Position numbers and translations under genes: made by a program | Notes under the pieces: generated by a model | The model's input: only the letters and a program-made list of their open reading frames with translations | Database searches by the model: none | What the model was told of the DNA's origin: nothing | Assembly: GCF_988243305.1 (NCBI RefSeq) | Contig: NZ_OZ547137.1 | DNA length: 64,000 nucleotides | Direction: 5' to 3' (one strand) | Origin: a plasmid | In this document: positions 3,918-54,531 of the stretch, in pieces | Numbering within the stretch: position 1 is the first letter of the stretch | Layout of the letters: each line of letters opens with the position of its first letter

Positions 3918-4603
<686 letters not shown>

Positions 4604-4702
4604 GCCAATATTCACACAATTAACTAATATTTTCTACGCAATACGTGACACCTTTCGAGGAGAGGTGCTCGAAATTTCAGACATAAAAAGCCCCGTAGGG
4701 CC

Positions 4703-5104
4703 TTAGATGATTTCTTCCAATGCTGATTCCAGTTCTTTTACTTGCATTGCTCTAAGACGAGGAGCTAATGTTCGATGGGCGTTTAAGTAATCAATGGCTC
4801 TTGTTACCAGCTTTCCTCCGCCACAGACAACGAAATAACTCTGATGTTGTGTGTGTTGTGCATCAAGAACTGTGTGGCCTAGCTTCTCTATTGCGGTACC
4901 ACTCACTTCCTGCCATTTAGCCGTTATTTGAACGGTACCGGTATTAGTGAACAACAGGAAGTGGGCTATTTCATTCTTTCCCGCGATCAGACCAGGATAA
5001 CTGACATTTTTTTTAAACGTCATCGGAGCTTCTGAGTTACTTAGCTCAAAGCCTGCCCCAGAAATAATTGCTTCAATATCACGCAGTAATTCTGCTCTGG
5101 ACAT
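4703..5104 (-). CDS. hypothetical protein (133 aa), cargo of the Tn3-like cassette
   Basis: Uninterrupted ORF between tnpR and the intron; no family recognised. Confidence 0.45.
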   Translation of the reverse strand: MSRAELLRDIEAIISGAGFELSNSEAPMTFKKNVSYPGLIAGKNEIAHFLLFTNTGTVQITAKWQEVSGTAIEKLGHTVLDAQHTQHQSYFVVCGGGKLVTRAIDYLNAHRTLAPRLRAMQVKELESALEEII

Positions 5105-5214
5105 ACTTTCACCTTATCGTGTTGTATCTTTTTTGATCTTGGGGGGGAGGCAGAATTTTCAAGATGTAGGCGTTTTATTTTATGGTTAATAATCACCGCC
5201 ACTCTTATGGTGAG

Positions 5215-7082
5215 AGATCGGGATAGGGGCTGATCTCACGATTAGCCTCCTCCCACACCACCGTACATACGGGTCCGTATACGGCAGTTCGGTTATGTTT
5301 ATCGTCGCCTGCCTATAACTCCGGTAGGCCCAGTCTGACGAACAGGCGATTGGGAAGTGCTATGCTCAGTGCCGGACTACAGCTTATCCGCCATTGCTTA
5401 TGGCAACTCCCTACCGTTTGCGCTGCAAGGTCTTTGCTTACTCCCCGTCTGCGCAACTCTTTGAAGCGCTTGCTGCCCGTTTTCCACTGTTTCCACAGGA
5501 CACTTCGCAACCTTCGCCTTATCCACCTGTTCAGATCTCTCATCAGCGTTTGCCACTGGTTCAGTCCATAGTAGCTTTTCCATCCCGTCAGATATCGCTT
5601 TAACGGTTCGATAAGCTGCTCTAGGCTTTTGCCCGTGTTACGCCCCGTCAGTTCTCTTATCCGGGTTTTGAACCGCTTCACCGATTCCGGCAACACCACA
5701 CACCACACCTTTCTGCCCCTCCTGAAGCTGTAACCCAGGAACTTACGCGTCTCCGGAAGCGCTACCGCGCTCTTCTTCGCGTTGAGCTTCAGCTTCAGTT
5801 TCCGGTTCAGCCAGTGCGTCAGCCCCGCCATCATACGGTTGCCTGCCCGTTCACTCTTCACATACACATTACAGTCGTCTGCGTAGCGGGCGAACTTCAG
5901 GCCGCGTTTCTCAAGTTCCTTATCGAAGTCATCCAGCAGCAGATTCGATAACAGTGGCGACAGTGGGCCGCCCTGCGGCGTCCCTTCTGTCACCGGCATT
6001 ACCAGACCCGCTTCCATCACACCTGCATTCAGGTACCCGCGGATAAGTGACAGCACCCGTTTATCCGATACTCGTTTCGCTATCCGGCTCATCAGTACAT
6101 CGTGATTCACCCGATCGAAGAACTTTTCCAGATCGAGGTCAACCCCCCAGCTGTAGCCCGACTCGATGTATTTCTGAGCCTGCTTCACTGCCTGATGCGC
6201 CGAGCGTCCGGGCCGGAACCCGTAGCTGCTGTCGCTGAACGTCGCATCCCACTGTGCCTGCAACACCTGCATCATCGCCTGCTGGATAAAGCGATCCACC
6301 ACCGTCGGGATGCCCAACAGACGTTCGCCGCCGCCGGGCTTCGGGATAGTCACTCTTCTTACAGGGGATGGGCGGTAGCTGCCGGACAGCAGTTGCGCTT
6401 TCAGTTCCGGCCAGTGGTGTCTCAGATAGTCCGGCAGTTCGCTTACGCTCATGCCGTCGGCTCCCGCCGCACCTTTATTGGCCTTCACTCTTTTCAGGGC
6501 ATGCCTGAGGTTGACTGGTTCGCAGATGGCTTCCATCAGCCACGCTGTTGACGATGGACTTTCTCTGGTCGTCGGTGCCTGCACGGTTTCAGCCCCCTGA
6601 GAACCGGCGTCAGGGGCTTCACCCCGTCTTCCTGCATCAGGGTCGCGATACGTTTTCTGCTGCATGACCGTTCAGAACCTCCGCTGATACTCGTCACTCA
6701 TTACCGTTCGGGCCTTCAGACGCGCCTGTCCTACTATGCCCTCTGCTGACTCCTGTCCGCCGGTCAGCGCACCTTACGGTACGCTCAGTTCTGAATACAG
6801 AACGCCAGACAGGCCTCCCGGGGTAAGCTCAGCCGCTTTCACCACACACCTGCCCAATCTACCACCCCGGCTCTTGATGGTTATGGCCTTTGCAATCAAT
6901 GGCTTGCTCCGCCAGCCGGGTAGGCCTCATATCGGATTTCTGTTCGTCAGGTCATGGTTTTGCTCCACGCTTCCTTCAGATCCCGCCTCACGACGGCACC
7001 CTTGCGCTTCACGAGTCCTTCGCCACCATCAGGCTGGACAGGGGACTTTCACCCCCGAGCTGCTGAGCATGCCCGGCACACC
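5215..7082 (-). mobile_element. group II intron (bacterial class C-like; boundaries approximate)
   Basis: 5-prime end GTGTGCCGGGCATG... on the minus strand sits right after a terminator hairpin; domain V-like stem-loop (rc of 5255..5292) and domain VI downstream of the IEP ORF. Confidence 0.75.
5313..6665 (-). CDS. group II intron-encoded reverse transcriptase/maturase (no endonuclease domain evident)
   Basis: 450 aa with RT motifs (GIPTVVDRFIQQA, FARYADDCNVYV with YADD) and a C-terminal maturase X domain. Confidence 0.9.
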   Translation of the reverse strand: MQQKTYRDPDAGRRGEAPDAGSQGAETVQAPTTRESPSSTAWLMEAICEPVNLRHALKRVKANKGAAGADGMSVSELPDYLRHHWPELKAQLLSGSYRPSPVRRVTIPKPGGGERLLGIPTVVDRFIQQAMMQVLQAQWDATFSDSSYGFRPGRSAHQAVKQAQKYIESGYSWGVDLDLEKFFDRVNHDVLMSRIAKRVSDKRVLSLIRGYLNAGVMEAGLVMPVTEGTPQGGPLSPLLSNLLLDDFDKELEKRGLKFARYADDCNVYVKSERAGNRMMAGLTHWLNRKLKLKLNAKKSAVALPETRKFLGYSFRRGRKVWCVVLPESVKRFKTRIRELTGRNTGKSLEQLIEPLKRYLTGWKSYYGLNQWQTLMRDLNRWIRRRLRSVLWKQWKTGSKRFKELRRRGVSKDLAAQTVGSCHKQWRISCSPALSIALPNRLFVRLGLPEL

Positions 7083-7083
7083 A

Positions 7084-7107
7084 TAAAAAAGCCCCCACGG
7101 GCTTTAT
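7084..7107 (-). terminator. rho-independent terminator-like hairpin forming the intron 5-prime exon
   Basis: Minus strand aaagccc-gtgg-gggcttt stem-loop followed by a T-run, immediately upstream of the intron 5-prime end. Confidence 0.5.
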
Positions 7108-7140
7108 TACTAAATTCAATACAAACAACAAATTATGCTC

Positions 7141-7178
7141 TTAACGTACGTTTTCGTTCCATTGGCCCTCAGCCCCCT
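7141..7178 (-). repeat. Tn3-family terminal inverted repeat (second copy, inverted relative to 3880..3917)
   Basis: Reverse complement reads agggggctgagggccaatggaacgaaaacgtacgttaa, matching the IR at 3880. Confidence 0.7.
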
Positions 7179-7429
7179 GGTATTGCTTGCGCCAGAGAAA
7201 TAACTGGCTGGCTGCCACACCGTGTTGCCGGGCAACAAGGGAGGCCGTCATTCCCGGTTCAAAGCTCTGCTGAACAATAGCGCTCTTTTCCTGTGTAGTA
7301 CGCCGTCTGCGTTTCTCCGGTCCTAAGACATCAATCATCTGTTCTCCAATGACTAGTCTAAAAACTAGTATTAAGACTATCACTTATTTAAGTGATATTG
7401 GTTGTCTGGAGATTCTGGGGGCTAGTCTA
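7177..7429 (-). mobile_element. insC: IS2 5-prime fragment (IRL and truncated insC)
   Basis: rc of 7381..7429 matches the IS2 left end (tagactagcccccagaatctccagacaaccaatatcacttaaataagtg); ORF 7141..7383 encodes [18 protein letters not shown]...LFLWRKQYQ, then runs into the Tn3-like IR. Confidence 0.85.
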
Positions 7430-7624
7430 TCTTCAGCTTACGGGCTATCTGACGATGTGACCAGCAGTATGGTGGCAAAGCCATATCAGTCCTTTCTCTT
7501 TGAGTTCACCTAGCATTGTTATCTCCTTAAAAAATTGAGGCGACAACTATGCTGACACAGAGGGTTATTGATCTTACCCAGCAATAGTGGACACGCGGCT
7601 AAGTGAGTAAACTCTCAGTCAGAG

Positions 7625-7933
7625 GTGACTCACATGACAAAAACAGTATCAACCAGTAAAAAACCCCGTAAACAGCATTCGCCTGAATTTCGCAGTGAAG
7701 CCCTGAAGCTTGCTGAACGCATCGGTGTTACTGCCGCAGCCCGTGAACTCAGCCTGTATGAATCACAGCTCTACAACTGGCGCAGTAAACAGCAAAATCA
7801 GCAGACGTCTTCTGAACGTGAACTGGAGATGTCTACCGAGATTGCACGTCTCAAACGCCAGCTGGCAGAACGGGATGAAGAGCTGGCTATCCTCCAAAAG
7901 GCCGCGACATACTTCGCGAAGCGCCTGAAATGA
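7625..7933 (+). CDS. insE: IS3 OrfA
   Basis: [50 protein letters not shown]... (ORF track begins three codons earlier at an alternative start). Confidence 0.95.
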
Positions 7934-8796
7934 AGTATGTCTTTATTGAAAAACATCAGGCTGAGTTCAGCATCAAAGCAATGTGCCGCGTGCTCCGGGT
8001 GGCCCGCAGCGGCTGGTATACGTGGTGTCAGCGGCGGACAAGGATAAGCACGCGTCAGCAGTTCCGCCAACACTGCGACAGCGTTGTCCTCGCGGCTTTT
8101 ACCCGGTCAAAACAGCGTTACGGTGCCCCACGCCTGACGGATGAACTGCGTGCTCAGGGTTACCCCTTTAACGTAAAAACCGTGGCGGCAAGCCTGCGCC
8201 GTCAGGGACTGAGGGCAAAGGCCTCCCGGAAGTTCAGCCCGGTCAGCTACCGCGCACACGGCCTGCCTGTGTCAGAAAATCTGTTGGAGCAGGATTTTTA
8301 CGCCAGTGGCCCGAACCAGAAGTGGGCAGGAGACATCACGTACTTACGTACAGATGAAGGCTGGCTGTATCTGGCAGTGGTCATTGACCTGTGGTCACGT
8401 GCCGTTATTGGCTGGTCAATGTCGCCACGCATGACGGCGCAACTGGCCTGCGATGCCCTGCAGATGGCGCTGTGGCGGCGTAAGAGGCCCCGGAACGTTA
8501 TCGTTCACACGGACCGTGGAGGCCAGTACTGTTCAGCAGATTATCAGGCGCAACTGAAGCGGCATAATCTGCGTGGAAGTATGAGCGCAAAAGGTTGCTG
8601 CTACGATAATGCCTGCGTGGAAAGCTTCTTTCATTCGCTGAAAGTGGAATGTATCCATGGAGAACACTTTATCAGCCGGGAAATAATGCGGGCAACGGTG
8701 TTTAATTATATCGAATGTGATTACAATCGGTGGCGGCGGCACAGTTGGTGTGGCGGCCTCAGTCCGGAACAATTTGAAAACAAGAACCTCGCTTAG
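7930..8796 (+). CDS. insF: IS3 OrfB (DDE integrase domain)
   Basis: 288 aa with DDE region (WAGDITYL...HTDRGGQY...[11 protein letters not shown]); ATGA overlap with orfA. Confidence 0.95.
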
Positions 8797-8955
8797 GCCT
8801 GTGTCCATATTACGTGGGTAGGATCATATTACCCGATCTCGATGGACGTTATTGAGTGATCTCCTTCCATGAAGCTCGCCACGGGAATATCTGCGGCAGC
8901 GGGCCAGTAATGGGGTAAGTGATAGAGTTAACTCTGTGTTTTATGTGGGGATGAT

Positions 8956-9200
8956 ATGGAATTAAAACAAGACATCGAAAAAGAGATTATAAAATTAATA
9001 ATATCAGAATACATTAGTACACTTTATTATATACATCTAATTGTACAATTGATGTATAACAAAAGAAGGAAGTAAAATATCATTAGAAATGAACTCATAT
9101 TTCTTGAGAGAGACGTTAATATATCAGTAAAGTGCAAGGATATTCAGGAAGGACGTATATCGCAATCAGATTAAACAGCGCTTGATAACTCGTATCAATA
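8956..9200 (+). pseudogene. aggR-like 5-prime gene fragment (AraC/Rns-family paralog remnant)
   Basis: ~80% nucleotide similarity to the first ~230 bp of aggR at 22100; translation MELKQDIEKEIIKL... stops prematurely. Confidence 0.7.
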
Positions 9201-9493
9201 TCTATATGATAGGGTTTTTCAGCACATTATATTCATCAGGATTTTATTTTAAAAGCTAATAAAAGCTATTTTATATTGCTATGACATAACTTCTATGTAG
9301 CCATACTAATGATAAACTCTCTTTTCAGAGAGTTTTAACCCTTCGTTAATATTGCCAGTCAGCAAATCATATTCACCACGATATTGGCGTTATTGTTCAA
9401 CGCCAATATTTATTTTATTATTTCTAAAAATCTCCCTATACATTAGTTAATATAATAGCACTCCCCATTTTCAACTGAAAATTAGCGCATTAC

Positions 9494-10705
9494 TCATATC
9501 TGTGTAAATAAAAAAGGCTCCGTTTTTGACCTATTAAATAAGTCCATATCAATTTTCCAATTCTTGTCTATAAGAACTGTTCCACCATAATTTTGAATAT
9601 TAATAAGAGGGGTATTCGGCGAAACAGAGAATTTCGATAATATGCTTCCATTAATAAGGGTGTTGTCATATTTGTGATTGTCACTCAACCATGAATAATC
9701 GGATTGAACAATGGAGATATCTTTTCTTCGAGATTCACCCTCAGGAAATAATCCCTCATAACATATATGAATACTCATTTTAATGTTGTTGAAATCCAGG
9801 ATGTCCTGCTCATTATATTTCTTTTTATAATATAGAAAAGGTGATGTCGATGGTTCTGGTGAGTTATAAAAACTTTTCTTCTCAAAAAAAGGTATCAATT
9901 TGCTTTTTTGGTGGAGAAGAAACTCTTCTTTATGCCAGAAAGCAGACACTACGTTATTAATGTCTTGATATCCATAAAGATTCATTAATATCCCATATTT
10001 ATAGTGGAATCGATTATCTTTTAATTGCTTTAAGAGATGTTTAGTTCTTTCCTTTATATAATCATTCTTGTAACCGAAAAAAACATTTTCTGAGAGGATA
10101 ACTAGATCAACCTTCTTATTTCTGACGAATTCATTGAGATCAGTATAAAAATTACCTCTGACACCTACTTTTTTAAAATAAAGGCCAACCTGTACAATCA
10201 CAATGTTCAGAGGGGGATGTGTTATATTAACCGGTGTTTTCCATATTAGCGGAAATAATAATAACATAAGAGAACGGAGAAAAAATGATATTTTTAGACT
10301 AAATGTAACTGCAGGAATAAGATTTAATATTAATAAATTTAAAACAGGAATATCTGTTCTTGGTAAGATGTCAGGAAAATCATAATATAAAACAATCAAT
10401 GGATTTAATGGTATAAACATCCCGAAGGCGGATAATGAGGTTAATGAAAGGGCATGTAGACATGCTCCAAGTACCCCATAAGAACTCAGGAAACCATATA
10501 TGACAAGGGTTACCATATTATAGCAGAGTAATCCAAATGAAAGGTATAAATTAGAACTGCCATAATATTCTAAAAAACCACTAGAAAAATACATCCCAGA
10601 GAAAATGATAGAGTATAAAAGAATAGTAAAAAAAAGACTCACTCGTCTTTTTCTTGCTGCGAGATAATAGGCAAAAAAATACAATAAGACAATAGCGAAC
10701 TTCAT
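9494..10705 (-). CDS. aatD: AatD, membrane-anchored Lnt-like N-acyltransferase (CN-hydrolase fold)
   Basis: N-terminal multi-TM region plus a C-terminal domain with an ICYEGLFPE motif like the Lnt active-site Cys; last gene of the aat cluster. Confidence 0.8.
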   Translation of the reverse strand: MKFAIVLLYFFAYYLAARKRRVSLFFTILLYSIIFSGMYFSSGFLEYYGSSNLYLSFGLLCYNMVTLVIYGFLSSYGVLGACLHALSLTSLSAFGMFIPLNPLIVLYYDFPDILPRTDIPVLNLLILNLIPAVTFSLKISFFLRSLMLLLFPLIWKTPVNITHPPLNIVIVQVGLYFKKVGVRGNFYTDLNEFVRNKKVDLVILSENVFFGYKNDYIKERTKHLLKQLKDNRFHYKYGILMNLYGYQDINNVVSAFWHKEEFLLHQKSKLIPFFEKKSFYNSPEPSTSPFLYYKKKYNEQDILDFNNIKMSIHICYEGLFPEGESRRKDISIVQSDYSWLSDNHKYDNTLINGSILSKFSVSPNTPLINIQNYGGTVLIDKNWKIDMDLFNRSKTEPFLFTQI

Positions 10706-10716
10706 AAACTGTAAGC

Positions 10717-42452: not shown

Positions 42453-43262
42453 TTATGCGTGTCTGTTTTTCAGCATTGTGACCGCATCGGACTCAGGCAT
42501 CGAAAACTGCACCCGGTGCCGTGCAGCCACATCCAGCGCAAACACCTTCGTGTAGACCTCCGTTGAGCTGATGGACTTATGCCCCATTAGGCTCTGCAGG
42601 ACCTTCAGTGGTATACCGGCATACAGCATGTGCATCGCATAGGAATGGCGGAACGTATGTGGCGTGACCGGGACAGAGAACGTCACACCGTCAGTAGCAG
42701 CGGCGGCAACCGCCTCCCCAATCCAGGTCCTGACCGTTCTGTCCGTCACTTCCCAGATCCGCGCTTTCTCTGTCCTGCCTGTTCGTTTATTACGCCGTTC
42801 CAGAGGAACTTTCAGTGTTGCCACCATCGTCTGCAGCTGACTGACGTACCAGGAGTCGGAGAGCGGAACCAGCCGGTGAGTCTGCTGTCCGGCAGGCGTT
42901 CTTCCTGCCGTCCTGGCGGCTTTTTCGGTCCGCTGCTTCAGAGTGGCCAGCTGCACAAACGGATACGGAGGCGCGAGCGAAAAATCCCCCCGCGTCAGCG
43001 CCAGTGCTTCATTAATGCGCGCACCGGTGTTCCACAGTGTAGCCAGCAGCATCTTGCGGCGCAGATCCGGGACGTAATGGAGCAGGGCACTCACTTCCGG
43101 AGCCAGCAGATATTTCGGCAGTTCATCATGAACCATCGACATCTGGCGAAGTGCCAGAGCTGCCGGATAATCAATGACAACAGGAAGTTGTGGAGACTGT
43201 CCGGCAGAATAAACTGCCGGTACCCTGGCTGCAGACTGGCTGTGTATAACGGAGCCTGACAT
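42453..43262 (-). CDS. resD: tyrosine site-specific recombinase (ResD-like multimer resolvase)
   Basis: C-terminal catalytic motifs (HTFRHSYAMHMLYAG...STEVYTKV); immediately downstream of ccdB as in F-like plasmids. Confidence 0.85.
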   Translation of the reverse strand: MSGSVIHSQSAARVPAVYSAGQSPQLPVVIDYPAALALRQMSMVHDELPKYLLAPEVSALLHYVPDLRRKMLLATLWNTGARINEALALTRGDFSLAPPYPFVQLATLKQRTEKAARTAGRTPAGQQTHRLVPLSDSWYVSQLQTMVATLKVPLERRNKRTGRTEKARIWEVTDRTVRTWIGEAVAAAATDGVTFSVPVTPHTFRHSYAMHMLYAGIPLKVLQSLMGHKSISSTEVYTKVFALDVAARHRVQFSMPESDAVTMLKNRHA

Positions 43263-43788
<526 letters not shown>

Positions 43789-44453
43789 AGCACACCTCTT
43801 TTTGACATACTTCTGGTATGCATATCAGTATATATTCTTATGCCGCAAAAATCAGCGCGTTAATACACATACTGTTATCTGGCTTTTAGTAAGCCTTATT
43901 TATTTTTCCTTGAATTATGTTAACCAATAAAAATTAAAATCAGACTTATAAAAACAAAGCTTAATTATCGAAGGACCATTTCCGGCAGATCCGATTTTTC
44001 TGTTATTGACGGGTTTCCGGAAGTGTACCACACTGAGGAAATCATCATATCGCTGTTTTCCGCCCCTGCGCGACGCATCACAGGTCAGGGAGATGACACA
44101 ATATATAGTGTCATCAGCAGCTGAATCCGGCACCACATGTTGTGCTTACAGGAGATGGCGTTGTGTGGGGGGAGAGGAAGATCCTGAACTTACTTTTTTC
44201 GGATCTCTGGAAAAGAAAGGAGTGAGGGATAAAAACTGACATTATTAAAAATATAAAAGCAATGCTTAAAAAGCATAAAAGCAATTTTTGTAATTACTAC
44301 TAGTACTACAAGAAGAATCTATAGTTTGAGGCGGCGTTCATGGCGGTGATCGAGCCGGACACGATTCCGGCATTAGCTGAGCTACTCACACTGAACGGGG
44401 ATCTCTTACGCGTAGACCGGCTGCCGTTCTTCTCAGAGAAGCGGTAGCCGTGG

Positions 44454-46262
44454 CTAAAGCATTAGATCTTCAAAATTCAGCGTATGGCTGTGCGGCTTTT
44501 TGCGGAAAGACAGCTCGTTTATACGAAGCTTAAGTGGCATAGGGCAGATCACGCCACTGAATATGCAGGTGCCGGTTGCAAGCGTTGGAATAGATTCTTC
44601 AGTCATGCGGTCTATATAGGAAACGGATTTTTCAATAGCATACAGATCGTTCTGATTTATCAACCGGTGAATGAAATAGTTATGTGCCTGAGAAATGATA
44701 GTCGGGGAGATATCGTTTGGTCGCTGACTGGATATCGTCACAAAGACGCCAAATTTTCTGCCCTCCTTAATTATCTCTTCAAACGTTTCGAGCCGATAAT
44801 CCTTCCAGCTTTCTGATTCCCTGAACGAGGTGTTCGAAAGGATATTGTGTGCTTCGTCTATGATGAGATGGAGAGTGGACGGTACCTTATCCATTTTTTT
44901 TGCTGAATAGGCCCATTTGGCCATTAAAAGTGGTAGCGTTTTTTTCATGGTCAGATTGACCATATTAAGGTTCAGGACAACAAAGTTCGTTTCTGCCCAG
45001 ATGGTTCCGCCGGACGCAGTATTGAAAATTTTACGAGTATCTTTTTTCAGTCCGCTCATTCGATTGATGACAGGAGAAAGATGTTCAGGATTTGAGCGAC
45101 TTGAAAGATATTCAATAATTAGCTGAACATACATATAGTCCAGCAACTCTTCCATTATATCGTCGGGAAATTCATAATTCTGAGCCATCTGGTACATATT
45201 GCACTGATGAGTATTTTCTTCATTAGAAAAGTAAACGCCTGTCTTGGTTCGCCATACGCCGCCGTTGTTATAAAAAAATTCAATATCTGCTATCAGATCT
45301 TCGTCCTTCAGTACAGGACGGAATAAATCAATCAGGTCGTCACTTTTTTTCTTTTCGCAACCAAACAGAGTTTCGGTGACCCGCCGTTTCAGAATTTCAC
45401 GAAAATATGACTGAGGGTTCAGCTTCGACTCCACTCGCTTTTTGAATTCAAGCACTCGCTTCAGAAAAGGTTTCTGCGTTTTGTCGGTGGCATCCGTCAG
45501 GACAGAGATAATCTCATGCTCAAGCAGTATCTCAGCAGGCATCGGAATGCGATCACCCTCTTCATCATGCGTGCTAAGATTATAAACAACCTTGTCGCGC
45601 GTAATGCAGCTTCTCCCACCATATTCACCATTGAAATCAAATAAAAGAAACCGTGACCGACTTCTGAATCCTTCGCCTAGTAGGTTTTTCAGGGCCTCAT
45701 AGCCATGCTGATAAAGCGCGGCCAGAGTATTGGACTTGCCGCTGCCAGTATTACCGAAGATGGCGATGTGTGAGTTGAGAAGGCCGCTTATCGGGAGAGT
45801 GATATCAATATCTTCGAGATCGGTGCGCGAAAAATTCAGCCCGGACTCGCCCGCTGGCGCGATCGAGTGGATAAGATGAAGTTGTTCCTCAGACATCAGA
45901 AAAACTTCATTGCCGATAAGGGGCAACTCGCGAGTTCCACCAGTAAAGCGCCCGTTCCGGTCAATATAGCCTGCCAGTGAGGCTGTAAGATAGCGGCGGA
46001 AGCGAAGCGAATCGCTTCCGCTACCAACAGGTGATTTTTCCTCGACAATCTTCTCGGTTTCTACCTTTGCAATCAGACTCATGAATCCTTTTTTGACTTC
46101 GATGAAACTACCTACTGAAACATTTTTGAGCACCTTACCGTGATAAAAAAGATCACTCAGATTTTTATTTTTATCGACAAGCACACTGAGTGTTCTGCCC
46201 GATACTTCACGAACCTCACCGATCCTTAATACTGCTTCTTCGTTAACAAAAGCGGAGGTCAT
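44454..46262 (-). CDS. herA: HerA-like (FtsK/HerA superfamily) ATPase, partner of the SIR2 gene
   Basis: 602 aa; Walker A GNTGSGKSN and Walker B LIIDEAHN; start overlaps the upstream SIR2 stop (ATGA). Confidence 0.75.
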   Translation of the reverse strand: MTSAFVNEEAVLRIGEVREVSGRTLSVLVDKNKNLSDLFYHGKVLKNVSVGSFIEVKKGFMSLIAKVETEKIVEEKSPVGSGSDSLRFRRYLTASLAGYIDRNGRFTGGTRELPLIGNEVFLMSEEQLHLIHSIAPAGESGLNFSRTDLEDIDITLPISGLLNSHIAIFGNTGSGKSNTLAALYQHGYEALKNLLGEGFRSRSRFLLFDFNGEYGGRSCITRDKVVYNLSTHDEEGDRIPMPAEILLEHEIISVLTDATDKTQKPFLKRVLEFKKRVESKLNPQSYFREILKRRVTETLFGCEKKKSDDLIDLFRPVLKDEDLIADIEFFYNNGGVWRTKTGVYFSNEENTHQCNMYQMAQNYEFPDDIMEELLDYMYVQLIIEYLSSRSNPEHLSPVINRMSGLKKDTRKIFNTASGGTIWAETNFVVLNLNMVNLTMKKTLPLLMAKWAYSAKKMDKVPSTLHLIIDEAHNILSNTSFRESESWKDYRLETFEEIIKEGRKFGVFVTISSQRPNDISPTIISQAHNYFIHRLINQNDLYAIEKSVSYIDRMTEESIPTLATGTCIFSGVICPMPLKLRINELSFRKKPHSHTLNFEDLML

Positions 46263-46905
46263 TTCATACCTCCAAGAAAGCTGGTTATAATTTCATTCAT
46301 CTTTTTGAAGTCCAATGGGGCTCCAGGAGTAAAAACCACATCAACATTGGAATAATCACGGAATTTATCAAGGAATAGGTCTTTAGCCGCCTCATTGTAA
46401 GCGAATATAACAATTTTGAGCGTGGCGTTTCGCAGTGCTTTCTTGGTAAGAGTTTCAATATGCTCATCCGCAAAAGAAAATCCGAAAACTATAAGCAAAG
46501 AGCCTTCTTTATCCAGCTCATTTGAATAAGTCCGTAGCAGGTCGTAATACACGTTTTCAAGTAAGGTTTCACGAAATTTATCCTTTCGCGGCAGAACCAG
46601 TTGATGTGACATAACCCAGTCCTGCTTCTCCTTTGGTGTATTGAACGCAACTGGCTTCATATCCTTAATGGAATAATAGATTTCCTTATCATAGCTATGC
46701 CAAGAAAGGGAACCATGCAGCTTGATGAGATTCACCGTAGGTAGTTCCACGCTGTAATTATAAAGGTTCCCGGTTGCGTGTATGGTCTGATAAAAACATT
46801 TGGTATCGAATACTGTCCGGTTGTAAATATCGGCGCGCTGACGGAATCCTGATCTTACCCAGCAATAGTGGACACGCGGCTAAGTGAGTAAACTCTCAGT
46901 CAGAG

Positions 46906-47214
46906 GTGACTCACATGACAAAAACAGTATCAACCAGTAAAAAACCCCGTAAACAGCATTCGCCTGAATTTCGCAGTGAAGCCCTGAAGCTTGCTGAACG
47001 CATCGGTGTTACTGCCGCAGCCCGTGAACTCAGCCTGTATGAATCACAGCTCTACAACTGGCGCAGTAAACAGCAAAATCAGCAGACGTCTTCTGAACGT
47101 GAACTGGAGATGTCTACCGAGATTGCACGTCTCAAACGCCAGCTGGCAGAACGGGATGAAGAGCTGGCTATCCTCCAAAAGGCCGCGACATACTTCGCGA
47201 AGCGCCTGAAATGA
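46906..47214 (+). CDS. insE: IS3 OrfA
   Basis: Identical protein to 7625..7933. Confidence 0.95.
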
Positions 47215-48077
47215 AGTATGTCTTTATTGAAAAACATCAGGCTGAGTTCAGCATCAAAGCAATGTGCCGCGTGCTCCGGGTGGCCCGCAGCGGCTGGTAT
47301 ACGTGGTGTCAGCGGCGGACAAGGATAAGCACGCGTCAGCAGTTCCGCCAACACTGCGACAGCGTTGTCCTCGCGGCTTTTACCCGGTCAAAACAGCGTT
47401 ACGGTGCCCCACGCCTGACGGATGAACTGCGTGCTCAGGGTTACCCCTTTAACGTAAAAACCGTGGCGGCAAGCCTGCGCCGTCAGGGACTGAGGGCAAA
47501 GGCCTCCCGGAAGTTCAGCCCGGTCAGCTACCGCGCACACGGCCTGCCTGTGTCAGAAAATCTGTTGGAGCAGGATTTTTACGCCAGTGGCCCGAACCAG
47601 AAGTGGGCAGGAGACATCACGTACTTACGTACAGATGAAGGCTGGCTGTATCTGGCAGTGGTCATTGACCTGTGGTCACGTGCCGTTATTGGCTGGTCAA
47701 TGTCGCCACGCATGACGGCGCAACTGGCCTGCGATGCCCTGCAGATGGCGCTGTGGCGGCGTAAGAGGCCCCGGAACGTTATCGTTCACACGGACCGTGG
47801 AGGCCAGTACTGTTCAGCAGATTATCAGGCGCAACTGAAGCGGCATAATCTGCGTGGAAGTATGAGCGCAAAAGGTTGCTGCTACGATAATGCCTGCGTG
47901 GAAAGCTTCTTTCATTCGCTGAAAGTGGAATGTATCCATGGAGAACACTTTATCAGCCGGGAAATAATGCGGGCAACGGTGTTTAATTATATCGAATGTG
48001 ATTACAATCGGTGGCGGCGGCACAGTTGGTGTGGCGGCCTCAGTCCGGAACAATTTGAAAACAAGAACCTCGCTTAG
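47211..48077 (+). CDS. insF: IS3 OrfB
   Basis: Identical protein to 7930..8796. Confidence 0.95.
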
Positions 48078-48734
48078 GCCTGTGTCCATATTACGTGGGT
48101 AGGATCATCCATCATTCAGAATGACGTTGTTATTTTTAACCGCTGCATCCTCAATGAACAAATCATAGTTAGTCGTAAAGAGGTTGATACGCCGCGGTAG
48201 CAATCCAGTCCGCCGCCTCGTCAGAAGCATTTCTAATGCACGCATGAGCTTCGCGTAGTTGTTTTGTGTCGATACGACATCATCTATTAAAGTAGGAAGG
48301 ATTACCTCTGCGGGCAAGCTTCGCTTCAGGAGGACGTTGTTTGCCTTCCATACATTGTCCAGAAAAGACTCAGATTTACTGAAGTATTCATCATCCTTTC
48401 CGGCGCGGACCAGAGCCTCAAGCTCGCTTTCAATATCACCTAACACGCTGATTGCAGGCAGCGATGCTCCTGAGCCAATGATGAAATTGATGTTTGCTGA
48501 TTGAAATATGCGCTCAAAATATTCACGATCTCTGTCCTGCCCGTAGTAAGCCCGATAAGTCGCCACGCTGTGCCTTTCCTTAAATATCGTAGATAAGATG
48601 TATCTTACATGTTTCAACAAGTGATGCATCCTGTTTAAATTTCATTCTCTGACTCATATACAAACGCAGCTAAACGAATCAGGTAGGTAGTTTCATTGCT
48701 TCCGGCTTCACCAGAAACCGGATCTGACCTAGAA

Positions 48735-48818
48735 AAGAGAAAGAGTGTATGTAAGTTCTGTACTGTATGTATGGTATGTATGAATTGTATTGTATGTATT
48801 ATTTGTATTGTATGTATT
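48735..48818. repeat. degenerate TGTATG / TTGTATG tandem repeat array in a divergent intergenic region
   Basis: gtgtatgtaagttctgtactgtatgtatggtatgtatgaattgtattgtatgtattatttgtattgtatgtattgtgtat, between the SIR2 start and the KfrA-like gene. Confidence 0.8.
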
Positions 48819-48877
48819 GTGTATTTTTCATACCGGGCGTACGATGGCGCCATTCCCTGAGAAACCGGAGCCAGACC

Positions 48878-49489
48878 ATGACATCCCTCTCCCCGGACAC
48901 CGTCCGCCGCATTGAAGACGCCGCCGCCGCCCTGATCGCCGCCGGCACCCCGAACCCGACCAACGAGCAGGTCCGTCAGCACCTCGGCGGCGGCTCGCTG
49001 TCCCACATCTCCCCGGTGATGCGCGCGTTCCGCGCCCGCCAGCGCGAGCAGGCCACTGAGCAGGCCACGCCCCTGCCGCCGGAGCTGGCGCAGCTGCTGA
49101 CCGGCCAGCTGGGGCTGCTGTGGCAGGCGGCCGTGAAACAGGCTGAAGCCGGGGCCCTGGCGGCGCGCGAGCAGGCCGACGACGACATTGCCCGGGCCGA
49201 CAAGGAGCGGGATGAGGCGCTGGCGAACGTGGCCGCGCTGGAAAGCGAGCTGGCGGTGCTGCGCGAGGTGGTGGCCGAACGTGACCGCCTGCTGCAGGAG
49301 GTACGCGAGCTGCGCGCGGAAGCGCTGCCGCTGCGCGAGCAGGTGGCCCGCCTGACCGCCACCGGCGAACACCTGGCGGCGCAGCTGCAGGACACGAAGG
49401 CGGAGCTGAAGGAAGCCCGGGAGGACGGCCGCCAGCTTCAGACCGAACTGCTGGCTCTGGCCCGCCAGGACGGGAAGGTGAAGAAATGA
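48878..49489 (+). CDS. KfrA-like DNA-binding protein (N-terminal HTH, long Ala/Arg/Glu-rich coiled coil)
   Basis: MTSLSPDTVRRIEDAAAALIAAG...GGGSLSHISPVMRAFRARQ resembles the KfrA N-terminal domain; ~70% GC; start at ATG 48878 with upstream GGAG. Confidence 0.65.
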   Translation: MTSLSPDTVRRIEDAAAALIAAGTPNPTNEQVRQHLGGGSLSHISPVMRAFRARQREQATEQATPLPPELAQLLTGQLGLLWQAAVKQAEAGALAAREQADDDIARADKERDEALANVAALESELAVLREVVAERDRLLQEVRELRAEALPLREQVARLTATGEHLAAQLQDTKAELKEAREDGRQLQTELLALARQDGKVKK

Positions 49490-50106
49490 GACAGGAAAGA
49501 GTATTACGTATAAAGGCATTTCGACGGGCACTGGAGCTTGGTGGCGGTGAACGGGCTGACGGGTGTCGTCATTTTCCCCGCTGGAAAACGGAACTGAGGA
49601 ATTTCCCGCACGGCAGCTGCGATTTAGCCAGCAATACTCTGGCGTACTACCTCAAGGAACGAGAGAGATGCCATCCGTGCATCATTTTTATGGAAGGGAA
49701 CGCTGGCTTTCATGAAGCGGAAAACTCAACAGTTCACGGGCATGTCATCGTATTGCTGGACGGAGAGTACATCGATTTGACGCTGGATCAATTCGACGAA
49801 TATCCGGACTACATTCCTTACGAACCAGTCGAATCTGACGGGCAGATTGGTAAGCTGTTGCGTAATATCATGAAGCATGAGGACCAGGTAAAAACCCGCC
49901 AGATTGATCTCGATGGTGGCGAAGAGCTGTATGCCTGGTTACGCGATACCGCCGACGAAGTGCTGGCAGCAGATCCGGAATGGCAGGCCCGGGAACGGTC
50001 GATAGAAGAAGCAAGGGAAGCCGCTATTACGGTGTTCCCGTTTCTGTCTGACGTGCAAAAAACTGAGTGCGAACAGGGCCCGGACAGTCAGGAGGCTGCC
50101 AGATGA
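49486..50106 (+). CDS. hypothetical protein (206 aa), translationally coupled
   Basis: ATGA overlap with the KfrA-like stop; no family recognised (possible Cys/His catalytic-like core SCDLAS...HGHVIVLLDGEYIDL). Confidence 0.5.
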   Translation: MRQERVLRIKAFRRALELGGGERADGCRHFPRWKTELRNFPHGSCDLASNTLAYYLKERERCHPCIIFMEGNAGFHEAENSTVHGHVIVLLDGEYIDLTLDQFDEYPDYIPYEPVESDGQIGKLLRNIMKHEDQVKTRQIDLDGGEELYAWLRDTADEVLAADPEWQARERSIEEAREAAITVFPFLSDVQKTECEQGPDSQEAAR

Positions 50107-50891
50107 AGATTTATCATTACACTGACCTGAACGGCCTGAAGGGCATCATCGAATCAGGCTCACTGTGGGCGACGCACTTTTCCTTTCTCAATGACAGTAA
50201 TGAGCTGACTCACGGCATGAACTGCCTTGAGAATGCCCTGCAGTACCTGAGGGACGACTTTAACCCGAAAACCCTTAAGTTCATCGAACAGGCACTGACG
50301 CACTTCAGAATGCACCGGGCAGCTCACGTCTATAACCTTTCGTTCTGTCTCGAACCCGACCTGTTAAGCCAGTGGCGGGGTTATGGGAGCTCTCAGGGCG
50401 TGTGCCTGGAATTTGATGATGAAGAGCTGCTTGCCTCGCTGGAATTAACTCATTATCAGGTGTTTAAAAACCGGGTACTCTATACCAAAGAGGATTCCAC
50501 GGTTGAAGCCCGGAACGAAATCCTCGCCTTCTTTCGTCAGCCACATGTTCAGGCGGCAATAAATGCAGATGTAATGCATGAGATGATTCAGGCAACCAGA
50601 CTGGCACACAGCCTGCCGCCTTTTTTCAAGAATGACGGTTTCCAAGAGGAGCAGGAGTTCAGGATGGTAATCCTTCCGGAAAGCCCTTTTGAGGGTGTCA
50701 ATTTTCGTGTCAATGACAGCGGTCTGGTACCATATCTGATCATTAAAGCAAAAGACAAGCTGCCACTGACAAACGTCAGAATTGGTCCCCGCAGTAACAG
50801 AGCAATGATGATGGACGGGATTTCATTCCTGTTGCAGAGCAGGGGGTATACCAGTACACGGATTTCGTTTACTGAGACGCCGTTCCGGTAA
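50103..50891 (+). CDS. DUF2971-like protein (262 aa)
   Basis: N-terminus MKIYHYTDLNGLKGIIESGSLWATHFSFLNDSNE resembles the DUF2971 signature; ATGA overlap with the upstream ORF. Confidence 0.55.
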   Translation: MKIYHYTDLNGLKGIIESGSLWATHFSFLNDSNELTHGMNCLENALQYLRDDFNPKTLKFIEQALTHFRMHRAAHVYNLSFCLEPDLLSQWRGYGSSQGVCLEFDDEELLASLELTHYQVFKNRVLYTKEDSTVEARNEILAFFRQPHVQAAINADVMHEMIQATRLAHSLPPFFKNDGFQEEQEFRMVILPESPFEGVNFRVNDSGLVPYLIIKAKDKLPLTNVRIGPRSNRAMMMDGISFLLQSRGYTSTRISFTETPFR

Positions 50892-50926
50892 ATTCAGTTA
50901 AGAAGCACAAACTTCTAGGGATCAGT

Positions 50927-51667
50927 ATGTTGAATAAAGTTTCACAAATTAATTTGGCCAAAATACTGGCTGAAAAATTTAACGAAGGTGACTGGCAGGA
51001 GCTGTTTGCTGTTACAGATTGTGAAGACGTTCCGGAAGGACTAAATCAATTCTACCGGCATGTTCACTGGGACAACCCTGAGCTGAAAGGGGTGGCCATC
51101 GCTGCCATAGAAAGCACTCTGGCCAGGGACGCTGATAATCTTTCTAAGATCTGGGCGCTGGATAATGTTCAACGCTTTATCAGCATTGCCAATACTGAGT
51201 TATTCAATGAAATAAAGAACATTGTGAATCAGAACGGGCAAAGAAATGTTTCGGCAGCACCAGTGAAAAATGTAAATGAAAACATTTACCAGGCCTTAGA
51301 AGATGCGGAAGTGTTGCTTAAAAATAATGGGCCACACCGGGCATATGATCGTGTTCATACAGCTCTTCATGCTTCATTAAGACAAATGTGTGCCAACCAT
51401 GGAATTGCGACCAATAGTACAAATGATAATGTTCCAGGCTTGCTTTCTCTGATAACTGCACATCTCAAAGACCTGCCTGATGATGGAAGAAATGAAGATG
51501 TGTTTAAAATGTTGAGATCATCTGCCGCAATACTTCATGGGATCAATAACCTGCGTAACAATTACAGCATGGCCCATCCTACTGAAACTTTGCTGAATGA
51601 AGCCGATGCCCGTTTTGCCATAAATCTGGTTCGTTCCATCATGACTTATGTTGATGAGTTGCTTTAG
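50927..51667 (+). CDS. hypothetical protein (246 aa), possible Abi_C-like C-terminal domain
   Basis: C-terminal HGINNLRNNYSMAHP region is loosely reminiscent of abortive-infection C-terminal domains; inference only. Confidence 0.45.
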   Translation: MLNKVSQINLAKILAEKFNEGDWQELFAVTDCEDVPEGLNQFYRHVHWDNPELKGVAIAAIESTLARDADNLSKIWALDNVQRFISIANTELFNEIKNIVNQNGQRNVSAAPVKNVNENIYQALEDAEVLLKNNGPHRAYDRVHTALHASLRQMCANHGIATNSTNDNVPGLLSLITAHLKDLPDDGRNEDVFKMLRSSAAILHGINNLRNNYSMAHPTETLLNEADARFAINLVRSIMTYVDELL

Positions 51668-51955
51668 TTTTAATAAAAATATGAGACTCACAGCGAACAG
51701 ATAGAACTTCAACGAAGAAGTGAAGTACGGCCAGAATTTCGAGCTCTGGCCCTCCGGAAGATGCCGGACAGACGCATCATCCCGTCGCGGCCGCTTCCAT
51801 TTTTGTGTGTACTCAACCTGCCGGATCAGGATGGCGGCAGGATTTGCACCCGATGTTCCAGCCGCCTTGCCTCTTCCTGATCCCGGTATTCCCTCGCCTT
51901 TTTCATCATTTCTGCCGTTGGCTCCTGCAGTTTGTCGAGAAACTCCTTAGATCGT

Positions 51956-52768
51956 TTAGCCACCGACTGAAGGGAGACACTGTCCGTCCTGCCGGTATTG
52001 CGATTGGTGTAAACCAGGCGGGTAAGGGGGTCTGGTTAACTCCTTCCCTTCCATAAAGCGTTTGAAGATCCAGAGATATATATCAACCAGCTCCAGCCCT
52101 GCACTTTTTGTACCCGACTGGAAAACCAGCGGTTCAGCCGGCATGTTCGTCACATCCATGACCGGTAAACCGGGACCGTGTACCCACGGCATCTCACGTA
52201 TCTGGTAATAGAACTCCCTCAGCTCCCGCTGGGTGGTGTTGAACTGTGACTGCTGGTCCACAACGATGTCGGCTTTGCGATTTGGTGCTCCCAGGCGGGA
52301 ACAGATACCGCGCAATACGAACTGAAATCCAACCATATTGGGCATGATCTGCAGCTTTTGTTTACCGGTTTTGCAGTTATATCCCAGTTCGTCAAAGTGG
52401 GTCATCGCCCAGGACAACGCATCGGTAATCAATTCAATGTAACGGCGGTCCCCCAGGGTATGAACGCGCGCAAGCAGCTCACTGCAGACCTCACTGAACA
52501 GAGATGAGGACCTTCCATCATGGGCTTCGAGGCGGGCACGCCACGCTTTTTCAGCCAGTTCATTATCGAACAGGCTTGCCAGATTCAGTAGCAGCGGGTA
52601 ACGAAAGGGGGTCCAGTAGGCAACCCTGGGCACTGCAGGATTCATCCCCTGATCGAAGAACGAAATAATGGCGTGATCCCGTTTAACGACCAGCCAGACA
52701 TCAAACCGTATCCGGTGCTTCTTCTGCAGGACAAGCAGCGTATCAACCACCTCATCAAGGCGGTGCAT
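51956..52768 (-). CDS. hypothetical protein (270 aa), N-terminus uncertain
   Basis: Long ORF with a 66-aa overlapping ORF upstream in another frame (52755..52955); C-terminal LELVDIYLWIFKRF is loosely DUF3800-like. Confidence 0.4.
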   Translation of the reverse strand: MHRLDEVVDTLLVLQKKHRIRFDVWLVVKRDHAIISFFDQGMNPAVPRVAYWTPFRYPLLLNLASLFDNELAEKAWRARLEAHDGRSSSLFSEVCSELLARVHTLGDRRYIELITDALSWAMTHFDELGYNCKTGKQKLQIMPNMVGFQFVLRGICSRLGAPNRKADIVVDQQSQFNTTQRELREFYYQIREMPWVHGPGLPVMDVTNMPAEPLVFQSGTKSAGLELVDIYLWIFKRFMEGKELTRPPYPPGLHQSQYRQDGQCLPSVGG

Positions 52769-53280
52769 GCCAAGCTCTGCGGCGTGCAGACGCTGTACTT
52801 GTCAACGCCACGATCTTTGACCGTCTTATATCGACAGAGTTATCCGGCATGGTGTCAATCCGTTCACAATTTTTCCATCGGAGCAGCCTACCACCGGTGA
52901 TAACCTGACTTTGCCTGTAGTTTGTATACACAACCCCTGGCATTGAAACAAACATATGAAGTGTACTTCGGATATGACTGTACGCTCAGGAAGTACGGCA
53001 GATTCCGTCAAAAATTACCTGTAAAGACAGACATCAGAAAAACAGTGCTCGCCGCAGACCGGTGACCGGGCGAAGCCCGCGAACCGGCGAGGAAGCGCAA
53101 TGGATCTGTAGTTACAGTGAGCAGGTACGCCCTGAAGCCTTCATAATCGGTAGTGTATGCTGTTTTTCTGGAATGATTTATCCACATATCCAGAGGCCCG
53201 ATCCAGTAAACAGATCCATGAATGATCAACAAAGGATCCATTAAAGATCCCCATATCGCTGCAAACCTTGTCATTAATGG

Positions 53281-53420
53281 TCCGGGAGCACGATCACATA
53301 AGCTGTGGCATGTTACTGATAAACTGTAACAGGTTCATGATAAGCTGTATTCAGTAATACATATACTGCCGTAAGTTAATGACATAAACTATGGTCAGTA
53401 TGCCAGACTCAGTTGTTAAA
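53281..53420. promoter_or_regulatory. RepFIB upstream iterons (direct repeats)
   Basis: Repeated cataagctgtgg / gataaactgtaac / gataagctgtattc units. Confidence 0.7.
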
Positions 53421-53553
53421 TACAGGCTGCAGGTTTTTCTTCAGTCAGTTGACGGGGTTCTGACACACGATTTTCTGTTTATTCTTTTACTGTCCACAGG
53501 CAGGAGGCTTTCTGGAAAACGAAAATTCAGACATCAAAAAACTGTTCGGCGAG

Positions 53554-54531
53554 GTGGATAAGTCGTCCGGTGAGCTGGTGACACTGACACCAAACAATAA
53601 CAACACCGTACAACCTGTGGCGCTGATGCGTCTGGGCGTCTTTGTACCGACCCTTAAATCACTGAAGAACAGTAAAAAAAATACACTGTCACGTACTGAT
53701 GCCACGGAAGAGCTGACACGTCTTTCCCTGGCCCGTGCAGAGGGATTCGATAAAGTTGAGATCACCGGCCCCCGCCTGGATATGGATAACGATTTCAAGA
53801 CCTGGGTGGGGATCATTCATTCCTTTGCCCGCCATAACGTAATTGGTGACAAAGTTGAACTGCCTTTTGTCGAGTTTGCAAAACTGTGTGGTATACCTTC
53901 AAGCCAGTCATCCCGCAGGCTGCGTGAGCGCATCAGCCCTTCCCTGAAGCGCATTGCCGGTACCGTGATTTCGTTTTCCCGTACCGATGAGAAGCACACC
54001 CGGGAATATATCACCCATCTGGTACAGTCAGCCTACTACGATACTGAGCGGGATATTGTGCAGTTACAGGCCGATCCCCGCCTGTTTGAACTGTACCAGT
54101 TTGACAGAAAAGTCCTTCTCCAGCTTAAGGCGATTAATGCCCTGAAGCGACGGGAGTCCGCCCAGGCACTCTACACCTTTATAGAGAGCCTGCCCCGGGA
54201 TCCGGCACCGGTATCGCTGGCGCGGCTGCGTGCACGCCTCAATCTGAAGTCTCCTGTATTTTCCCAGAACCAGACGGTCAGACGGGCAATGGAGCAGTTG
54301 CGCGAGATTGGATACCTTGATTACACGGAGATCCAGCGGGGGCGGACAAAATTCTTCTGTATTCACTACCGGCGTCCCCGGTTAAAAGCGCCGAATGATG
54401 AGAGTAAGGAAAATCCGTTGCCACCTTCACCTGCGGAAAAAGTCAGTCCGGAGATGGCGGAGAAACTTGCCCTGCTTGAAAAACTGGGCATCACACTGGA
54501 TGACCTGGAAAAACTCTTCAAATCCCGCTGA
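53554..54531 (+). CDS. repA: RepFIB replication initiator RepA
   Basis: 325 aa [65 protein letters not shown]...; iteron arrays on both sides. Confidence 0.9.

Follow-up and report, generated by a model that had tools for sequence, protein, structure and literature searches.

Two adjacent genes of the minus strand were found between positions 44,454 and 48,629 of the window, by which the whole 64,000-nucleotide stretch of plasmid DNA under analysis is meant (contig NZ_OZ547137.1 of assembly GCF_988243305.1). The host plasmid is an enteroaggregative E. coli virulence plasmid. The gene order is SIR2 and then herA, the same as in uninterrupted relatives, and the SIR2 stop codon and the herA start codon overlap in an ATGA at 46262..46259, the 4-bp overlap which had already been pointed out by a sequence-only reading of this DNA. 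The herA gene is intact (44454..46262 including the stop codon) and encodes a HerA-type ATPase of 602 aa according to the ORF list, PADLOC, Pfam and PDB chains; a GGAGGT Shine-Dalgarno sequence is located 7 nt upstream of its ATG. The SIR2 gene is found in two pieces on the minus strand. Its 3' fragment (46259..46846) comprises codons F175-K369 in ATG numbering, which are F154-K348 in GTG numbering, and the stop codon, and its 5' fragment extends over 48108..48566 from the probable GTG start, the frame being open up to an ATG at 48629, although this extension is probably untranslated. Between the fragments an IS3 element of 1258 bp is inserted on the plus strand (46850..48107). It is bordered by two 3-bp copies of the target duplication TCC, to which no strand is assigned: the left one at 46847..46849 and the right one at 48108..48110, whose three bases form codon G174, the last of the truncated N-terminal fragment.

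The element was recognised by its terminal inverted repeats (TGATCTTACCCA... and TGATCCTACCCA...) and by identity to annotated IS3; it is 99.9% identical to an element of NZ_AP043642.1 annotated as 'IS3-like element IS3 family transposase, programmed frameshift'. Its genes orfA (46906..47214) and orfB (47211..48077) overlap at 47211-47214, and the element is antisense to the SIR2-herA operon. Size, inverted repeats, orfA/orfB layout and 3-bp duplication are those of E. coli IS3 (IS3 family, IS3 group), with nothing unusual here. The window contains three IS3 copies that are 100% identical, each with its own 3-bp duplication (TCC, TAT and AAC). The right end of the copy in SIR2 reads TGA on the minus strand (48105..48107) and serves as the stop codon which truncates SIR2 directly after G174; the two intact frames of a functional SIR2-HerA system are not both found here, SIR2 being split after G174 with an immediate stop, and the locus is thus a disrupted representative of these systems.

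After removal of IS3 and one TCC an uninterrupted frame of 1110 nt is obtained, which amounts to 369 codons when the ATG at 48629 is taken as the start, and its product is 100% identical to RefSeq WP_024232765.1, with no amino-acid change in comparison to the intact allele. This bears out what the sequence-only reading had described, namely an IS3 lying inside SIR2 with a TCC duplication and a coding frame continuous once the element is taken away. The empty site is found in NZ_MN218686.1 (pISV_IncFII_NDM-5), where the locus has 99.8% nucleotide identity, one TCC and no insertion sequence (GACGGAATCCATCATTCAG), so the placement of IS3 is not a chance pattern; related plasmids lacking IS3, with which a comparison had been proposed earlier, do exist. 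The complete identity of the three IS3 copies and the lack of any amino-acid change in the restored SIR2 support a recent insertion, again in agreement with the earlier view. It had also been stated that precise excision would restore SIR2, which is true on paper but is not a normal outcome for IS3. IS3-family elements move by a copy-out/paste-in route, and precise excision is not known to be a part of their transposition.

The length of SIR2 given in the sequence-only reading, about 370 aa, has to be corrected, as the likely GTG start gives a shorter protein. The start of SIR2 is most likely the GTG at 48566, from which 348 aa would be translated, the upstream 21 codons being probably non-coding. 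This start is preferred for several reasons: the RefSeq start in NZ_MN218686.1 and in pNDM4_000533 also gives 348 aa, a Shine-Dalgarno-like AAGGAAAGG is read on the minus strand 6 nt upstream of the GTG (48573..48581), the PADLOC profile begins only at residue 23 (ATG numbering), and the allele of pNDM4_000533, which is 97-98% identical, has a stop codon inside the upstream extension. In ATG numbering the motifs of the restored protein are IIGSGAS (with GSGAS at 52-56), FTTNYD (with TTNYD at 152-156) and KLHGS (216-220). N133 and D135 (GTG numbering) align with N163 and D165 of PDB 8w9l, and the histidine of KLHGS stands opposite H212 of the Paenibacillus SIR2, where the catalytic residues are N163/D165/H212 (PMC11472057). 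The catalytic Asn, Asp and His are all present in the window, but on opposite sides of IS3: the NAD-binding GSGAS (48462..48476) and the TTNYD with the catalytic Asn/Asp (48162..48176) belong to the 5' fragment, whereas KLHGS with the catalytic His (46709..46723) belongs to the 3' fragment.

The restored SIR2 matched the PADLOC SIR2 profile PDLC04080 with E 7.4e-163, residues 23-368 being aligned to profile positions 2-346 of 347, and it was also matched by Pfam SIR2_2 (E 6.3e-12) and, as the best match in NCBIfam, by SIR2_antiphage (E 2e-28). Its sequence matches in PDB were confined to chains of SIR2 from SIR2-HerA complexes (8yhx, 8j4u, 8w9l), with phmmer E values to solved SIR2 chains of 1e-15 to 2e-3 and the alignment extending over the C-terminal two thirds. 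For the ATPase the match to PADLOC HerA PDLC04097 was E 1.8e-221 (residues 9-601 on profile positions 3-611 of 618), followed by Pfam DUF87, the HerA central domain (E 4.3e-15), and HerA_antiphage as the best NCBIfam match (E 2.7e-40); its top PDB matches were HerA chains of SIR2-HerA (8yho 6.8e-29, 8wiv 3.7e-25, 8j4u_M 1.1e-21). Walker A GNTGSGKS is found at residues 170-177 (45732..45755) and Walker B LIIDEAH at 466-472 (44847..44867). A conjugation or secretion ATPase (VirB4, TraJ, TrwB/VirD4) was considered for the 602-aa protein and rejected, as no significant profile match was obtained; the scores with TraJ (E 0.0047, no passing domain), FtsK_SpoIIIE (0.032) and TrwB_AAD_bind (0.1) are weak and concern the P-loop only. 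The cut-offs of the NCBIfam equivalogs were missed by both proteins, by SIR2 for NF042942, SIR2_antiphage (99.2 vs 500 bits), and by HerA for NF042943 and NF042944, HerA_antiphage (138.5 and 114.6 vs 800 and 850 bits), and in sequence terms both are homologous to these narrow models but of a different subfamily. Judged by the full-length profile matches, the family assignment of both proteins is settled. The proposal of a SIR2-HerA anti-phage pair thus holds: both PADLOC matches run end to end, the motifs are present, the reconstructed protein is recognised by all three SIR2 models and the ATPase groups with HerA.

Characterised SIR2-HerA systems of Paenibacillus sp. 453MF (8w9l/8wiv/8wld), Staphylococcus aureus and E. 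coli (8j4u/8su9) have the same two-gene order. In their SIR2 they share with this locus the SIR2_2-type Rossmann domain, in which GxGxS, the catalytic His and a TTNYD bearing the catalytic Asn/Asp are found, and in their HerA the N-terminal region, the DUF87 core and the Walker A/B motifs. In comparison to the solved and tested systems the window locus represents a distant subfamily (E 1e-16 to 1e-11 for SIR2), its restored SIR2 is shorter (348 vs 381-428 aa) and its SIR2 gene is interrupted by IS3. The HerA ATPase or the SIR2 NADase effector is also shared with DUF4297-HerA, ThsA/Thoeris, DSR1/DSR2 and SIR2-pAgo. However, no DUF4297, TIR, SLOG or Argonaute partner was found at the locus in the ORF list or by PADLOC, and the SIR2 and HerA models of SIR2-HerA outscore other PADLOC models by more than 100 orders of magnitude, weak matches being Aga_SIR2 (1e-13) and mad8 (7e-21).

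In PLSDB the intact locus is carried by 109 plasmids, from Klebsiella, Enterobacter and Escherichia, and 102 of them have it near-complete. Comparison of the two intact allele groups gives pN/pS values of 0.07 (SIR2) and 0.05 (HerA), which means strong purifying selection on the intact alleles. On pISV_IncFII_NDM-5 (WP_024232765.1 and WP_024232767.1) the SIR2 protein is identical to that of the window after IS3 removal, while HerA differs at two residues, of which I409T is the sole window-specific substitution. The locus of pNDM4_000533 (NZ_CP028588.1) has 97-98% nucleotide identity to the window locus and no IS3. When the IS3 junction of the window was looked for in PLSDB and in all complete RefSeq E. 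coli genomes, the only record with more than 80% coverage was pAST81_1, but there IS3 is located at another place and SIR2 is hit by copies of IS1A. In the literature nothing specific was found on Nezha/SIR2-HerA on Klebsiella plasmids, and no experiment on the subfamily of this locus.

In homologues, complex formation activates the NADase, and catalytic mutants of either protein lose defence (PMC11472057, PMC11514289); defence in the characterised systems depends on the presence of both proteins, on the catalytic residues of SIR2 and on its self-assembly (PMC11472057). By analogy, SIR2 and herA in the intact form would be co-transcribed and translationally coupled via the ATGA overlap, and a two-layered SIR2 ring together with a HerA hexamer would form a supramolecular complex. 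Its assembly would switch on the SIR2 NADase (nuclease activity has also been reported) and the HerA ATPase/helicase, and upon infection NAD+ would be depleted and phage replication stopped. An anti-phage role of the subfamily is suggested by homology and genomic context. In the window, IS3 landed after codon G174 (G153 in GTG numbering), duplicating TCC. The 5' fragment, ending at the TGA supplied by IS3, keeps the Rossmann GSGAS and the catalytic Asn/Asp, and the 3' fragment keeps the catalytic His and the C-terminal half, with no evident translation start of its own. With the fragments separated in this way no NADase effector would be made and the defence system would be non-functional; as the catalytic His is left on the other side of IS3 from the catalytic Asn/Asp, this copy of the system has almost certainly lost its defence function. 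With 1.26 kb of antisense IS3 now standing between herA and the operon promoter, this gene is probably silent or only weakly expressed. Consensus scans of 44100-48900 gave 5 promoters against 7.0 in shuffled sequence and 3 terminators against 4.9, and the operon promoter was not identified by them. Taken from its sequence, the locus is very probably an anti-phage operon of the abortive-infection type on a plasmid, SIR2-HerA or Nezha, which a simple and recent transposition of IS3 has inactivated.

Other explanations of this arrangement have been weighed against a simple transposition. An assembly artefact could be suspected at 46850, as three 1258-bp repeats with 100% identity are present and the identical junction was found neither in PLSDB nor in complete RefSeq E. 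coli genomes, but it is extremely improbable: both junctions consist of exact IS3 ends and a perfect 3-bp duplication of a sequence which is single-copy at the empty site, which a mis-join would not create, and the other two copies are flanked by their own matching duplications. Partial function might also be imagined, with SIR2 fragments complementing each other or an orphan HerA acting alone or with another effector, given that herA is intact, has its own strong ribosome-binding site and only one window-specific substitution, and that a GTG-initiated ORF of 163 aa spans most of the SIR2 3' fragment. This is regarded as very unlikely, because SIR2 is broken within its Rossmann-fold large domain, with the catalytic Asn/Asp on one side and the His on the other, the GTG of this ORF (46750) is without a Shine-Dalgarno sequence, and neither half of the pair suffices for defence in the characterised systems (PMC11472057). 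Moreover, IS3 and the operon lie on opposite strands, and the consensus scan detected no promoter which points out of the element to herA.

A further possibility is that the insertion was adaptive, the SIR2 NADase or the whole system being costly or self-toxic for this plasmid or host and insertion sequences being repeatedly selected as its silencers. Independent insertions are indeed found in the same locus, two IS1A in SIR2 of pAST81_1, IS903B in the 3' end of SIR2 of NZ_CP137415.1 and ISKpn26 in herA of NZ_CP033776.1, and some plasmids have only remnants of the locus. Nevertheless, only about 4 of the roughly 115 locus-bearing plasmids are disrupted in this way, most PLSDB records are near-complete, the intact alleles are under the purifying selection described above, and both genes have been struck. 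As the window has three identical IS3, its insertion is explained just as readily by a neutral burst. An adaptive insertion is thus unlikely; triggering by a resident prophage or by the entry of conjugative DNA would be examples of such a cost. In its broader form, that recurrent knock-out of this subfamily by IS3, IS1A, IS903B and ISKpn26 on at least four plasmids could reflect selection against a costly or plasmid/prophage-interfering NADase defence in clinical Enterobacteriaceae, the idea is likewise improbable. Besides phage, the targets of the subfamily might include incoming plasmids or further DNA. A preference of insertion sequences for the SIR2 effector gene was considered and dismissed, since three plasmids with SIR2 hit and one with herA hit (targets of 1047 and 1809 bp) are too few and the bias is not significant. 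The simple recent transposition of IS3 is therefore preferred.

The SIR2-HerA system as such is already known and the finding is correct but ordinary; a specialist would find nothing surprising in a disrupted SIR2-HerA locus. Its value is mostly in annotation, as automatic pipelines will report fragments of a 'SIR2 family protein' and an 'ATP-binding protein', and defence-system finders may overlook the locus or score it as present. Attention is also drawn to a SIR2-HerA subfamily which occurs on more than 100 clinical plasmids (carbapenemase and virulence). A further case is added of mobile elements turning over in the variable slot for cargo genes which IncF virulence/resistance plasmids have between ccdAB and RepFIB.

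The neighbours of the locus, a DNA-binding protein, DUF2971, an Abi-family gene and RepFIB, are shared by the IncF relatives. On pISV_IncFII_NDM-5 a SMODS and S-4TM pair is located between ccdA and herA, whereas the window is without this pair. In relatives the CBASS-like module is flanked by the 16-bp repeat TTTTCGGATCTCTGGA; its recurrence at other module borders was considered and rejected, as its single window copy is at chance level. An AbiJ-like gene lies near SIR2-herA in the window. The defence modules of the ccdAB-RepFIB slot are interchangeable: SIR2-HerA and the AbiJ-like gene are found here, and relatives have a CBASS-like pair or vapBC with an AAA ATPase.

The SIR2 gene of the minus strand is found in two pieces, a 174-aa ORF representing its 5' part (48105..48629, -) and a 163-aa ORF representing its 3' part (46259..46750, -), followed by the 602-aa ORF of herA (44454..46262, -), while two overlapping IS3-type transposase ORFs (46906..47214 and 47211..48077, +) are listed between both pieces. 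Reading of the sequence places there a 1258-bp IS3 copy (46850..48107) with the terminal inverted repeats TGATCTTACCCA... and TGATCCTACCCA..., flanked on both sides by TCC (46847-46849 and 48108-48110). After deletion of IS3 and one TCC in silico, the two minus-strand fragments form a single open frame of 369 codons starting from ATG 48629, and its stop codon and the start codon of the 602-aa ORF share the overlap ATGA. The insertion in SIR2, its TCC duplication and the continuous frame, all described in the sequence-only reading, were confirmed in this way, and every motif named there for the two proteins was found where expected.

The restored SIR2 protein is matched end to end by the PADLOC SIR2 profile PDLC04080 (E 7.4e-163) and by Pfam SIR2_2 (E 6.3e-12), and in PDB its sequence matches only SIR2 chains, those of the SIR2-HerA complexes 8yhx, 8j4u and 8w9l. 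In the alignment to 8w9l, from Paenibacillus sp. 453MF, N163 and D165 stand opposite the N and D of TTNYD and H212 opposite the H of KLHGS; these three have been described as the catalytic residues of the Paenibacillus SIR2 (PMC11472057). The 602-aa protein is in turn matched end to end by PADLOC HerA PDLC04097 (E 1.8e-221) and by Pfam DUF87, the HerA central domain (E 4.3e-15), and in PDB it best matches the HerA chains of these complexes. Its grouping with HerA, as had been proposed, holds against conjugation or secretion ATPases, for which only noise at the level of the P-loop was obtained (TraJ 0.0047, TrwB 0.1). On these matches the pair is assigned to the SIR2-HerA systems, in a subfamily already modelled by PADLOC, and its earlier interpretation as a SIR2-HerA defence pair was correct. 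The best NCBIfam models were SIR2_antiphage (99 bits, below the 500-bit cut-off) and, for the 602-aa protein, HerA_antiphage (138 and 115 bits, below the cut-offs of 800 and 850), and the subfamily is distant from the experimentally solved SIR2-HerA representatives. It is a system of known kind with identical intact copies already present in RefSeq; the subfamily is common on clinical plasmids, and it has apparently never been put to an experimental test.

The length of the SIR2 protein is most likely 348 aa, with the gene ending at 48566 and not at 48629, because the intact RefSeq protein has 348 aa and starts at the GTG equivalent to 48566, AAGGAAAGG lies 6 nt before this GTG while ATG 48629 has only a directly abutting AGG, the PADLOC SIR2 profile begins at residue 23 of the long (ATG) version, and the 97-98% identical allele of pNDM4_000533 carries a stop codon inside the 21-codon extension.

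In the characterised homologues SIR2 forms an auto-inhibited double-layered ring and HerA a hexamer, which assemble into a complex of ~1 MDa. Assembly switches on HerA as an ATPase/helicase and SIR2 as an NADase, for which nuclease activity is reported as well; phage protection is lost in catalytic mutants of either protein and in assembly-blocked mutants (PMC11472057, PMC11514289). An intact allele of the present locus would be expected to act by the same mechanism, through complex assembly leading to NADase activity. IS3 is inserted after G174 (G153 in the 348-aa numbering), so that the N-terminal fragment, terminated by a TGA from the IS3 end, retains GSGAS and the catalytic Asn and Asp, while the C-terminal half with the catalytic His is left beyond the element, where the sole in-frame start of the 3' fragment is GTG 46750 without a ribosome-binding site. 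With its catalytic residues split and no usable start for the 3' part, the SIR2 effector should be destroyed and the system inactive. The herA gene is undamaged and keeps a GGAGGT site of its own; since the insertion it sits behind 1.26 kb of IS3 in antisense orientation, and its expression is probably reduced. Consensus scans of 44100-48900 yielded fewer promoters (5 against 7.0) and terminators (3 against 4.9) than shuffled sequence and so were uninformative on promoters. Elements of the IS3 family transpose by copy-out/paste-in, the donor copy staying in place, and their precise excision occurs only by rare host-mediated slippage. It can be said that restoration of SIR2 through the 3-bp duplication is possible on paper but not expected; of the earlier claim that excision would restore a protein of ~370 aa, the open frame stands, but neither the length nor the optimism about excision does.

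The proposed comparison with related plasmids lacking IS3 was answered by pISV_IncFII_NDM-5 (NZ_MN218686.1), whose corresponding DNA is 99.8% identical, lacks IS3 and has one TCC at the empty site (GACGGAATCCATCATTCAG). The restored SIR2 is identical to its WP_024232765.1 in 348/348 residues, and the two HerA proteins differ at 2 positions. The window contains three IS3 copies (7569..8826, 14799..16056 and 46850..48107), 100% identical over 1258 bp, each with its own intact 3-bp duplication (TAT, AAC and TCC respectively). This pattern is the mark of simple transpositions in a recent burst, and it argues against mis-assembly. The intact duplications also indicate no later recombination between the copies. 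The SIR2-IS3 junction is absent from PLSDB and from all complete RefSeq E. coli genomes. IS3-related fragments are additionally found at 14643-14747 (93% identity) and 21337-21569 (87% identity). HerA codon 409 (45036-45038) encodes Thr in the window and Ile in the three other alleles compared; among these alleles it is the sole window-specific amino-acid change in the locus, and it may be neutral or else a first trace of relaxed selection.

In PLSDB, 109 plasmids carry the locus without interruption (62 of Klebsiella, 24 of Enterobacter, 17 of Escherichia, and others); 102 have it near-complete, and its alleles fall mainly into two groups, of ~99.8% and ~98% identity. The pN/pS between these groups (SIR2 0.07, HerA 0.05) shows that selection maintains the intact genes. 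Independent disruptions were noticed in pAST81_1 (NZ_AP043642.1; two IS1A in SIR2), NZ_CP137415.1 (IS903B in the SIR2 3' end) and NZ_CP033776.1 (ISKpn26 in herA), and the preference of these few events for SIR2 or herA is not significant. Recurrent IS inactivation of the locus is mildly interesting; that an IS disrupts an accessory gene is nothing unusual on a plasmid rich in IS elements.

The dispersin export genes aatPABCD (9494-14455, -) share 99.9% identity with those of p55989 (pAA of EAEC 55989) and relatives, which identifies the window as a virulence plasmid of the pAA type, from enteroaggregative E. coli. One of the identical IS3 copies stands on either side of this operon. The stretch that holds the SIR2-HerA locus is flanked by resD-ccdAB (42453..43788) and by the gene of the RepFIB initiator (53554..54531), and the surroundings of the locus are defence-rich and variable. 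An AbiJ-like gene of 246 aa (50927..51667, +; PADLOC AbiJ E 3e-9), named 'abortive infection family protein' in relatives, is separated from SIR2 by a 'DNA-binding protein'/hypothetical gene pair (48767-50106), the first of which gives a weak, coiled-coil-like LmuB match (E 3e-4), and by a DUF2971 gene (50067-50891). A 298-aa ORF (48635-49531, -), G+C-rich, of low complexity and rich in Arg, Gly, Leu and Gln, overlaps the 'DNA-binding protein' gene (48767-49489, +) almost completely and is most likely a shadow ORF and not a gene.

A 3.3-kb segment that the window lacks is found between ccdA and herA in pISV_IncFII_NDM-5 and pAST81_1. It contains a CBASS-like pair, made up of a SMODS nucleotidyltransferase and a pore-forming S-4TM effector, and also a small hypothetical gene. 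In L001 (pISV_IncFII_NDM-5) this segment is flanked by the exact 16-bp direct repeat TTTTCGGATCTCTGGA (4591-4606 and 7897-7912), present as a single copy in the window (44190-44211 region), which fits with loss or gain of the CBASS-like module by recombination at the repeat. In the closely related pAA-type IncFIA/FIB plasmid pE1246_1 (NZ_CP025574.1), the same slot (4289-11443, equivalent to ~43800-53500 of the window, ccdA to RepFIB) is occupied by vapBC together with a transposase and an AAA-family ATPase of 712 aa in place of SIR2-HerA and AbiJ. The ccdA-to-RepFIB slot is an exchangeable region for cargo or defence genes.
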